Part shown: positions 1-2,292 of the stretch, piece by piece
How the letters are laid out: every line of letters begins with the position of its first letter
Position numbering within the stretch: position 1 is the stretch's first letter
Source of the DNA: a virus
Lineage: Duplodnaviria > Caudoviricetes
Virus record (IMG/VR): IMGVR_UViG_3300042288_001626
Direction: 5' to 3' (one strand)
Length of the DNA: 64,000 nt
Position numbers and translations under genes: made by a program
Notes under the pieces: generated by a model
What the model was told of the DNA's origin: nothing
What the model saw: only the letters and a program-made list of their open reading frames with translations
Database searches by the model: none

Positions 1-1882
1 AGCCTGCACCTTCATAGTGTCTATCATTTACAATGCAGCGATATTGTTTTGTATCAAAGTCATAAACTTTAGCGTTTTCAATAACCACAGCATAAGTTCG
101 CAGTGCGCCTGTAACCTTGTACGCAGGCTTGCCCATGAAATCTACCCGTTCAGCTTTGGTTAGATCTACTGCGGTTTGCAAGAACTGCTTGCTTCTCTCG
201 ATAGCTTCATTCTTTACCTTGTTTACAACCTCGAGCAGAGCCACAATGTCTTGTTTCGTAATCAGCGTCTCCTTGTGGTTAGTCTTCGTTCCATCCTCAG
301 CAACACGCTCGACTTCGAATGTGGTGCATGATAGCAACGCGTCGACAACTTCTTCTGCTGCCCATGTATCGTTTCTGTACCCTGTCCTGTATACCCCGGC
401 AGCGTTGTGTCTGGAATACCAGCGACCGTCGGTTTTCTTGTTAATCGTGTCTACACGCTGTATCAATCTGCCCAGGTTTACACGAACTAGTCGATTATCG
501 CTGATCTCCAGCTTTACTCGCTTGTCTTCTGAGTCGATCCTAAACTTTATCGCAGGGGCACCATTCCCTGGAGTGGATTCTCTCAACTCATTCGAAGTCA
601 TGTTATGAATCTTTACCTTCAAACCATTGGCGATAATGTCGTGGTATTTGAGACTCATCCGGCTGATAGACTTTAAGAATAGCTTGTACTCTTTCTCGTC
701 GTGGTGACAGCTAGCCCTGTAGATAGCTTGAGCAATCTCATCTTTATTTATTCTCACCTTGTTGATATACCTTTGCCCTGTGTCCGAAACAGAAACAGAT
801 ATGGGTATACCGTTGATCGAGACTTCTGGAAGAGTGCCTATCACTTGCTCATCTACTCGAGCATGTGATACCCTGTCTGCTTCAGAGTCTACGTCCCTTT
901 GTAAAGACGCAGCTAGGATATTTGCAATAGTATAAATGTCAAACTCGCCGTTAAAGTTAAGCATGTTGTACAGCAACGACAGCAAGCCAGGGCTGACGAT
1001 ATGTACCTGTTCGTAAGTAGCACTGGTTTTCGACAGAGTGATGTTCTGAATTGTAGTCTTTTCGATCTCGTTGTTTAGCAGCTTACCAAGCACCAGCAGG
1101 GTGGTATTTTTCTTGTAGTCGCTATCAATTAAAGCAGATATCGGAGAGTACTTTAACTTATTAGCCTCAGACAGCTTCTTATTCATTCTGAGTCTGATCA
1201 TTTCGGCATCATAAACATTGATGAAGCAAGAGTTTTTAAGAAAAGACGTCAGTTCAGGCTGAAGCTTACACATAGCAAAGACGTGCGCGGTATTGATGTC
1301 ATAAGCATTAGCTACGACATGTAACGTCTCGTCCTTTTTGAGTTTGTTCTTGTGAGGAATACTCATCAAGAAAAACCCCTGATCCAGATAGTCGTATATG
1401 TCCTCTTCGCTGTGCGCTACAACAGCTGTCTCTACGCTGGCTGAGTTGTCGGCGAACTTTGTTACCAGTCTGTATGTTTTACCAGAGTCGGTATACTCTA
1501 CAGGAACGTTTGCGATAACTAGAGGTCTGTATTCACTGGAAATGTCTTCCGGAATAAGTTTTAGAGTTTTAAATGTTTTTGGATCGTCCTTCATAATGCC
1601 TCTGGCTGTAATATGAGCAGCCTGACAGGCGTTATTAAACGCCTCTGAAGCACTGAATGGAACAGGTACACTCAATCCTGAGGTAGGAACATTTATTAGT
1701 TTTGAGCATGCATGAAACTTGCTGCAGTTTTTAAACTTGAGCTGACTATACTTTAATGAATATACCCAGCTCCAATTTGGTCCGTGGGTAGATGAAATTT
1801 GAATATTGCCTGAGGCTACGTTTTTTGAAACCTCGAGAAACTTCTTGGTGATGTTCTTAAATTCAGCGACGGAAAGATTCAT
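1..1882 (-). CDS. Large hypothetical phage protein, >627 aa, truncated at the left window edge (absent from the ORF track)
   Basis: Manual translation from ATG at 1882 (MNLSVAEFKNITKK...RYINKVRINKDEIAQAIYRASC...YKVTGALRTYAVVIENAKVYDFDTKQYRCIVNDRHYEGAG) found no stop before position 1; the + ORFs 117-608 and 1398-1616 are its antisense shadows. Confidence 0.85.
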   Translation of the reverse strand, partial: MNLSVAEFKNITKKFLEVSKNVASGNIQISSTHGPNWSWVYSLKYSQLKFKNCSKFHACSKLINVPTSGLSVPVPFSASEAFNNACQAAHITARGIMKDDPKTFKTLKLIPEDISSEYRPLVIANVPVEYTDSGKTYRLVTKFADNSASVETAVVAHSEEDIYDYLDQGFFLMSIPHKNKLKKDETLHVVANAYDINTAHVFAMCKLQPELTSFLKNSCFINVYDAEMIRLRMNKKLSEANKLKYSPISALIDSDYKKNTTLLVLGKLLNNEIEKTTIQNITLSKTSATYEQVHIVSPGLLSLLYNMLNFNGEFDIYTIANILAASLQRDVDSEADRVSHARVDEQVIGTLPEVSINGIPISVSVSDTGQRYINKVRINKDEIAQAIYRASCHHDEKEYKLFLKSISRMSLKYHDIIANGLKVKIHNMTSNELRESTPGNGAPAIKFRIDSEDKRVKLEISDNRLVRVNLGRLIQRVDTINKKTDGRWYSRHNAAGVYRTGYRNDTWAAEEVVDALLSCTTFEVERVAEDGTKTNHKETLITKQDIVALLEVVNKVKNEAIERSKQFLQTAVDLTKAERVDFMGKPAYKVTGALRTYAVVIENAKVYDFDTKQYRCIVNDRHYEGAG

Positions 1883-1889
1883 GGTGTTT

Positions 1890-1929
1890 AAAAAAAGAAA
1901 CCCTCCAGAGCACGTGGCCCTGGAGGGTT
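1890..1929 (-). terminator. Rho-independent terminator after the Ubl-like gene
   Basis: Minus strand AACCCTCCAGGG-loop-CTCTGGAGGGTT followed by TCTTTTTTT. Confidence 0.75.
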
Positions 1930-1956
1930 ATGGTTAAACCTGCGTGAGCGAGTCGA

Positions 1957-2292
1957 CTAGTTCAGCAGACCCCCGCCCATCACAACACCAGTGAGCATTA
2001 CCTGTGCTGCAGGGTTGTTAACAAGCGCCTGACGCAGCTTTTGCTGATTGGCTTCTGTGCGTACATTGCTTCCTTCGAACTGGAACGGAGTGCCGTTGAT
2101 GTACACCCAATGCGCCTTCTTTTCCACACGGTCAAGAATGTTTTCCGTGGCTTGTTCCATGGAAAGATCTGCAAGAGTGGTGTGGCCTGTGGAATCTGCG
2201 ATTTCTACTTTGTAGTTGTTCATGATAATAGAGGAGGTTGCTTCGATAGAGGTGGAGTTGTTGATTTCGGAGGAGATGATGTTGTTGTTCAT
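1957..2292 (-). CDS. ThiS/MoaD/ubiquitin-like (beta-grasp) small protein with a GG(G)-LLN C-terminus; alternative start 2223
   Basis: Pattern YKVEIADSTGHTTL...WVYING...VMLTGVVMGGGLLN resembles ThiS/MoaD (VxVNG...VxGG) with a short tail after the diglycine. Confidence 0.55.
   Translation of the reverse strand: MNNNIISSEINNSTSIEATSSIIMNNYKVEIADSTGHTTLADLSMEQATENILDRVEKKAHWVYINGTPFQFEGSNVRTEANQQKLRQALVNNPAAQVMLTGVVMGGGLLN

Follow-up and report, generated by a model that had tools for sequence, protein, structure and literature searches.

The experimentally studied prokaryotic systems for ubiquitin-like (Ubl) protein conjugation that we found in the literature, namely the type II cyclic-oligonucleotide-based antiphage signalling system (CBASS), Bil and Bub, are host weapons against phages. 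Ubl proteins whose C-terminal Gly-Gly (GG) is masked also act as sulfur carriers, in the QbsE/QbsD/QbsC and CysO/Mec+/MoeZ pathways. Such sulfur-carrier pathways are discussed by Iyer et al. (2006, PMC1779556). Bil consists of the genes BilABCD, which encode a Ubl, an E2, a JAB deubiquitinase and an E1, and is a bacterial ISG15-like anti-phage defence (bioRxiv 10.1101/2023.09.04.556158; PMC10557695). The small archaeal modifier protein (SAMP) and TtuB systems work without an E2 and have dual roles in conjugation and sulfur transfer (PMC4443979, PMC2948915). Here, we analyse a stretch of 64,000 nucleotides from the virus record IMGVR_UViG_3300042288_001626 (called the window below). At its left end lie a Ubl precursor gene and most of the gene for a partner protein of about 685 residues; a JAMM/JAB protease gene and a gene for a minimal ThiF-type E1 follow just outside. 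We consider it somewhat probable that these four genes are a phage Ubl modifier cassette, placed in a replication and recombination module, that acts as a conjugation system with an E2-like carrier.

Ubl precursor

A preliminary description of this DNA had pointed to a 111-residue open reading frame (ORF) with the sequence WVYING and a GG tail. This ORF exists on the minus strand (window 1957-2292), starts with ATG and contains HWVYING. Its C-terminus is VMLTGVVMGGGLLN followed by the stop codon; the tail LTGVVMGG, with the diglycine at residues 106-107, is extended by GLLN. The protein begins with an N-rich low-complexity leader (approximately residues 1-25), continues with a beta-grasp core (27-103) and ends with the GG tail.

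The proposal that the protein has a beta-grasp fold agrees both with an AlphaFold2 model and with structural matches. The model, built from the family alignment, has its elements in beta-grasp order (predicted local distance difference test, pLDDT, 77.8 overall and 82-91 in the core). The structural matches include FUBI, URM1 and MOCS2A. Residues 26-107 of the Ubl align to the full length of these three proteins, all of which end in GG. Hence, the predicted fold of the Ubl is a beta-grasp.

A profile search with the Ubl against 1.84 billion representative proteins returned just 24 relatives. Only G36-H37 and G106-G107 are invariant in a 25-sequence alignment (A4) and in the syntenic loci. The diglycine is invariant across 46 distinct homologues (45, plus P0102 from the most distant relative). 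Members of the family share the end motif L[ST/A]GxLxGG; the tail behind it varies, with no residues in three homologues, one or two in most, and up to about 70 in some. The earlier expectation of a conserved GG with variable tails was borne out, and the Ubl signal is well beyond chance.

One related locus encodes a tandem head-to-tail di-Ubl of 187 residues (P0026; L014:8001-8564). Each of its repeats carries the TGH motif and a GG end, as in polyubiquitin. An invariant GG, variable tails and a tandem repeat form the pattern that would be expected of a modifier precursor processed at GG. The di-Ubl locus also contains a gene with a weak WGR domain downstream.

The second invariant pair, G36-H37, belongs to the TGH motif in the first beta hairpin and is predicted to contact the large protein. 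To our knowledge, ubiquitin, ThiS and MoaD have no invariant His at this position. Pfam Ubl families (ThiS, ubiquitin, Prok_Ub and others) match none of the 25 members, even at E values up to 10; by sequence, this is therefore a new Ubl family. PHROG, NCBIfam and PADLOC contain no match to the Ubl either.

The large ORF had been described as following directly on the Ubl gene. The neighbouring ORF does run off the window, with 627 residues inside it, but a 74-nucleotide spacer with a hairpin separates the two genes. The hairpin (window 1890-1929, minus strand) resembles a terminator, with a 13-bp stem, eight GC pairs and a T7 tail (tail sequence TCTTTTTTT). Folded as RNA, it reaches a minimum free energy of -27.4 kcal/mol (z -3.8), and 0 of 200 shuffled sequences fold as well. 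Most related loci have a GC-rich hairpin in the same spacer despite differing sequence, and in many of them a T run or T-rich tract follows it. Such a terminator directly behind the gene suggests that the Ubl may be produced in excess over the enzymes.

JAB protease and E1

Many metagenomic contigs contain the exact Ubl sequence. Among these is L001, which overlaps the window by 2393 bases with 100% identity and continues beyond its left end. Downstream of the Ubl gene, L001 encodes, in this order, the 685-residue protein, a 224-residue protein, a 142-residue Prok-JAB protein, a 198-residue ThiF protein, a 354-residue protein and RecA. The E1 and JAB genes that the preliminary description had suspected just left of the window are thus there, 0.85-1.9 kb to the left; the JAMM protease is intact and the ThiF-type E1 is short.

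The JAB/JAMM metalloprotease gene lies at about -850 to -1278 in window coordinates, and its 142-residue product matches Pfam Prok-JAB (PF14464) with 28.4 bits (cutoff 25). Its sequence HTHPSFSATPSQLD aligns to HSHPSPSCRPSEED of Archaeoglobus AfJAMM through the motif HxHx7Sx2D. The residues E23/E24, H81, H83, S91 and D94 are kept in 26-27 of 27 homologues, with E24, the two His, the Ser and the Asp in all 27. The E1 gene follows at about -1286 to -1882 in the same coordinates, and its 198-residue product matches Pfam ThiF (PF00899) with 66.3 bits (cutoff 28.1). In 14 homologues, GAGGIG, K66, D99, C126 and C156 (the latter within GGCLL) are invariant. Cys156 lies 57 residues past D99, which we take to be the spacing of the crossover-loop Cys in MoeB/ThiF. 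The best solved relatives in a profile search of the Protein Data Bank (PDB) are the NEDD8 E1 (UBA3), the SUMO E1 (UBA2) and Cap2. Judging from these conserved motifs, JAB and E1 are probably both active.

Between the large-protein gene and JAB lies the gene for the 224-residue protein (L001:12472-13146, roughly 180-850 bases to the left of window position 1), which overlaps the start of JAB by 4 nucleotides. We considered this gene as the missing E2 and rejected it, as the protein has the fold of a PolB-type 3'-5' exonuclease (Atlas 0.96 to PF10108 clusters; weak RNase_H_2). It is optional, being found in 13 of 29 loci. Its DEDD motifs are degenerate in the clade of the window (HIET, FRG..FIYP, NTLD) and intact in a sister clade, L032-L040 (DIET, FNG..FDIP, NDL).

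To describe how the cassette is conserved, we scanned the ORFs of 29 loci, 25 from IMG/VR and four others. All 27 fully covered loci contain the Ubl, the large protein, JAB, ThiF and a homologue of the 354-residue protein, in the same order and on one strand; the other two loci are cut by contig ends. E1 and JAB therefore co-occur with the Ubl in related genomes, as had been anticipated. The layout is kept even in the most distant relative, in which the large protein is 26% identical and the Ubl (P0102) ends in LTGALQGGC. The order of Ubl, large protein, JAB and E1 is thus kept in all 28 complete related loci.

Large partner protein

The first 627 of 685 codons of the large partner protein (P0003) lie within the window (2-1882, minus strand). 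The last 58 codons lie to the left, and the full size of 685 residues was read from L001. Homologues form about 100 clusters, and all of these come from phage-like contigs, whose length reaches 221 kb. A model of the large protein (pLDDT 86.4) has no clear PDB match, and the nearest models in AFDB and BFVD are uncharacterised proteins. Searches of PHROGs, NCBIfam and PADLOC with the large protein returned nothing.

The best-conserved part of the protein is its C-terminal stretch of about 140 residues, with 54-78% identity across the family. The start of this stretch, residues 545-627, is encoded at window 2-250 (minus strand) and has a mean column identity of 66%. It is the beginning of a predicted Ubl-binding domain that is DUF7737-like and possibly E2-like. 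The domain contains the motif YRCIVNDRHYxGAGYDD (in the family, YRC(616)IVNDxHYxGAGYDD), with the codon of Cys616 at window 35-37. All 36 of 36 homologues have Cys616, and 35 of 36 have His622.

Pfam DUF7737 matches the C-terminal domain below threshold in all 35 of 35 members (best E value 8.4e-6). In the phage genomes the score is 17-22 bits and the cutoff 27 bits, which leaves the domain outside the family. Models of DUF4132 proteins are weak structural neighbours of the large protein. Hence, the large protein is at most a distant relative of DUF4132/DUF7737 (MolR-like) proteins. DUF4132 proteins carry DUF7737 and have been reported as members of the DdrO/LexA regulon (bioRxiv 10.1101/2021.07.07.451423). 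This report would fit a replication and repair setting, and we treat it as a lead only.

The complex predicted for the large protein with the Ubl has an ipSAE of 0.67, compared to 0.00 for the best of three controls. Among solved complexes, 58 of 80 attain the mark applied to ipSAE, as do 2 of 110 mismatched pairs; these counts are rough here since we used our own alignments. Three runs share at least 83% of contacts, with a partner pLDDT of at least 72. In the predicted interface, Ubl residues 30-37, 59-71 (the sheet face) and 97-108 (the GG tail) lie on residues 556-575 and 616-663 of the large protein, including Cys616. Ubl residues 101-108 are predicted to lie on residues 616-627. We know of no solved complex that resembles this prediction. 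The prediction supports binding of the Ubl by the C-terminal domain of the large protein. Furthermore, the modelled Ubl tail contacts the invariant Cys, as would be expected of an E2.

Alternatively, the system may need no E2. E1 alone would then conjugate the Ubl, and the large protein would be the principal substrate or a Ubl-regulated scaffold (covalent or non-covalent) and not an enzyme. Precedents exist: in archaea and in Thermus, an E1 and a JAMM protease suffice for the conjugation of SAMPs and of TtuB, respectively (PMC4443979, PMC2948915). Structure comparisons of the large protein give no clear E2-like fold match, and the predicted complex indicates binding, not catalysis. However, the invariant Cys616/His622 motif sits exactly at the predicted position of the Ubl tail. 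The C-terminal domain is also far better conserved than the rest of the protein. The motif and its surroundings resemble an active site more than a modification site. We thus regard the E2-less alternative as distinctly unlikely.

Proposed conjugation pathway

If the cassette is a conjugation system with an E2-like carrier, it could work as follows. The Ubl would be made as a precursor. JAB would remove the variable tail, or separate tandem Ubls, and thereby expose the invariant C-terminal Gly-Gly. The 198-residue E1 would adenylate the C-terminal glycine, possibly followed by a thioester on the invariant Cys156. The activated Ubl would then be handed to Cys616, the invariant Cys of the large protein's C-terminal domain, and this domain would act as a non-canonical E2-like carrier. 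The N-terminal portion of about 540 residues would select substrates. As an alternative to this step, the large protein itself could be the main target of the Ubl. Finally, proteins involved in the DNA metabolism of the phage or the host would receive the Ubl, which JAB could remove again.

The genes, their catalytic motifs, the invariance of GG with its variable tails, the synteny, the predicted beta-grasp fold and the predicted interface are directly supported. From these we infer the chemistry of each step, the targets and the role of the large protein as an E2-like carrier. The preliminary description had interpreted the locus as a phage-side protein-conjugation system, and our results support this interpretation.

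Several observations weigh against a conjugation system with an E2-like carrier. The HPN motif is absent before Cys616. The families UQ_con and Prok-E2 are not among the Pfam matches of the large protein, and a PDB profile search with the C-terminal domain gave no meaningful match and no E2. In five near-complete relatives UQ_con matched nothing, but its control matched nowhere; the search with Prok-E2_B, whose control was weak, was likewise negative. The E1 is also unusual, with only 198 residues, an invariant NLLHQ(N) in place of the NLxRQ motif and no paired CxxC zinc sites. The complex of Ubl and large protein is a prediction. Last, a GG with a removable tail, a JAB and an E1 also fit the sulfur carriers of the QbsE/QbsD/QbsC and CysO/Mec+ type, and the host could supply the sulfur.

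The last point leads to the main rival explanation, a role as sulfur carrier. JAB would unmask GG, E1 would adenylate it, and a host persulfide would convert the Ubl to a thiocarboxylate. The large protein would then, via Cys616, thiolate a nucleotide, a tRNA, a DNA base or a cofactor needed in replication. Besides the matching gene set, this explanation gains from the failure to find a canonical E2 (with the weak controls just described) and from URM1 and MOCS2A among the fold matches of the Ubl. In the predicted complex, moreover, the Ubl tail lies in a conserved pocket, as in complexes of the MoaD-MoaE type.

Other evidence speaks against sulfur transfer. By sequence the Ubl is not a ThiS or MoaD, given that none of the 25 members matches a Pfam Ubl family. 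Family scans and motif analysis detect no rhodanese domain in the E1. Five relatives of 182-204 kb, with a completeness of 93-100% and in one case terminal repeats, have no rhodanese, cysteine desulfurase or TtuA/TilS-type PP-loop genes, whereas the same searches matched in 13-14 of 14 control genomes. In line with the preliminary description, which had noted no thiamine or molybdenum cofactor genes nearby, family scans of the window and the L001 neighbourhood found no thiamine, molybdenum cofactor or cysteine genes near the cassette. The neighbours are replication and recombination genes instead. A polyubiquitin-like tandem Ubl is also more typical of modifiers. Taken together, the absent sulfur genes, the E1 without rhodanese, the Ubl unlike ThiS and MoaD and the tandem Ubl favour a modifier role, and we judge the sulfur-carrier explanation to be unlikely.

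The idea of conjugation with an E2-like carrier can be extended to a bolder proposal, which we put forward tentatively and regard as rather doubtful. The phage may have a complete ubiquitination-like cascade of its own. Besides the precursor Ubl, the minimal E1 and the JAMM protease as maturase and deconjugase, the cascade would include a new class of E2, or of E2-E3 hybrid, built on a DUF7737-like domain with Cys616 as the catalytic residue, and it would tag proteins of replication and recombination or of host DNA metabolism. By extension, bacterial DUF4132/DUF7737 proteins induced by DNA damage may be Ubl-binding or E2-like modules.

Phage and genomic setting

The window comes from a tailed-virus phage, with a large terminase gene and a baseplate wedge gene within its 64 kb. 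The phage is present in lake-water metagenomes of 19 studies (2020-2025). Related phages that carry the cassette are large freshwater tailed phages of about 180-220 kb, also from lake water. The DNA of the window has no match among GenBank phages, and tblastn searches of these phages with the Ubl, the large protein and the E1 gave none either. A search of 185,579 prokaryote genomes found no relative of the large protein, and hence the cassette was not found in any prophage.

The cassette is embedded among replication and recombination genes. Upstream of the Ubl gene, L001 encodes GP88, a fusion of a uracil-DNA glycosylase (UDG) domain with PolA, DnaB, a DEAD helicase and an SMC-like ATPase. 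Across the loci the cassette is constantly flanked by UDG-PolA/GP88 on one side and RecA on the other.

This setting bears on a further explanation, counter-defence. The Ubl, E1 and JAB of the phage might disturb Ubl-based immunity of the host (Bil, type II CBASS Cap2/Cap3, Bub), for example by serving as a decoy modifier, or by acting as a deconjugase to remove host Ubl from phage proteins. Characterised bacterial Ubl-conjugation systems all act in anti-phage immunity, and in PADLOC the JAB and E1 weakly match CBASS JAB and E1-E2 models. However, these matches are partial and cover generic catalytic cores only, with none for the Ubl or the large protein. A deconjugase, furthermore, needs no Ubl, E1 or 685-residue partner of its own. 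The cassette is also fixed in the replication and recombination module over a deep clade (large-protein identity down to 26%), and does not sit in a variable accessory region. Counter-defence is thus highly unlikely in our view.

Of the individual neighbours, the Cys-rich GP88-family protein is encoded at window 3547-4329 (minus strand; PF17338, 99 bits) and carries the motifs C-x10-C-x3-C and CxxCxxC. In every related locus whose gene calls were read, its gene lies just before the Ubl gene, separated from it by no more than one small ORF. We found no solved relative of this protein and no paper on it. The next gene (window 4274-6988, minus strand) encodes a 904-residue fusion protein, with a UDG-superfamily domain at the N-terminus and DNA polymerase A after it. 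This fusion gene is kept upstream of the cassette in all relatives, and its closest matches in GenBank phages, from Clostridium phages, are merely 22-25% identical.

Directly upstream of the Ubl gene lies an acidic ORF of 110 residues with no family match (window 2327-2659, minus strand). It is not conserved: the relative L008 has a 62-residue ORF at the same place, and other relatives have none. On the far side of the cassette, between E1 and RecA, lies the gene for the 354-residue protein (L001:14225-15289, left of the window), which has no family match either. Found in every complete locus, this protein contains an acidic stretch and has a C-terminal tail rich in Pro and Ala. Its position and tail suggest a putative single-strand-binding or recombination mediator protein.

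Elsewhere in the window, ARAGORN identifies a full-length transfer-messenger RNA (tmRNA) gene at 35686-36105 on the minus strand (Rfam RF00023, 149.9 bits; gathering score 47). Its tag peptide, ANTNIVDFAPSVEEADAILAAFGYADADALLAA, is unusually long.

Comparison with known systems

A strictly conserved cassette of this kind, located at the replication core of lake phages of about 200 kb that form a widespread clade, would show that bacterial viruses use ubiquitin-like chemistry too. Known Ubl proteins would gain a new family, E1 enzymes a very small member and E2-like carriers possibly a new kind. The cassette further allows a connection of Ubl modification with DNA replication or recombination to be tested outside eukaryotes, and all its parts are small enough for reconstitution in E. 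coli. We found no description of a phage Ubl-E1-JAB cassette in a literature search of incomplete coverage. The cassette resembles the E1/JAB/Ubl systems of Bil, Bub, type II CBASS and archaeal SAMPs, yet it falls outside each of them.

Bil is similar in layout. Both systems consist of four co-directional genes, with a small beta-grasp Ubl, a ThiF-type E1, a JAB and a fourth partner that bears a Cys. In contrast to Bil, which is found in bacterial defence islands, the phage cassette sits among replication genes of a virulent-type phage. It has no recognisable UBC or Prok-E2 protein; the fourth gene encodes a 685-residue protein outside known families. The phage E1 has only 198 residues and the phage Ubl matches no Pfam family. 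PADLOC-DB 2.0.0 may contain no Bil-specific models, and the separation from Bil rests mainly on context. For Bub, Ye et al. (2024, PMC11601596) describe oxyester (Ser) intermediates, a peptidase-E1 fusion and a Ser-His protease, whereas the phage cassette has invariant Cys residues as catalytic candidates and separate JAB and E1 genes.

The SAMP/UbaA/HvJAMM1 system and Thermus TtuB/TtuC share with the cassette a Ubl ending in GG, a single ThiF-type E1, a JAMM protease and the lack of a canonical E2/E3 (PMC4443979, PMC2948915). They differ in that the phage E1 scores far under the cutoff of the NCBIfam UbaA model (12.7 bits; cutoff 450) and the phage Ubl is not ThiS/MoaD-like by sequence. Furthermore, the phage system is viral and has an extra conserved 685-residue partner.

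The masked-GG sulfur carriers QbsE/QbsD/QbsC and CysO/Mec+/MoeZ likewise combine a GG and a short removable tail with an unmasking JAMM protease and an E1-like adenylase. E1s of the QbsE and CysO type carry rhodanese domains and sit with biosynthetic genes. The phage cassette, in contrast, has no rhodanese, desulfurase or biosynthetic neighbours.

A likeness to PRTRC systems lies in the E1, whose best NCBIfam match is PRTRC_ThiF (TIGR03736). At 47 bits, compared to a cutoff of 144.75, it is not a member of that family. PRTRC and E1/E2/JAB operons likewise occur on mobile genetic elements, while the phage cassette comes without ParB or the PRTRC A-F proteins.

The sole phage pairing of a Ubl with a JAB that our literature search found is that of TAPI (Ubl) and TAPK (JAB-NlpC/P60) in lambda and T1 (Iyer et al. 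2006, PMC1779556). That pair belongs to the tail module, has no E1, and adenylation is not thought to be involved. The cassette described here, in contrast, combines its Ubl and JAB with an E1 and is placed in the replication module.

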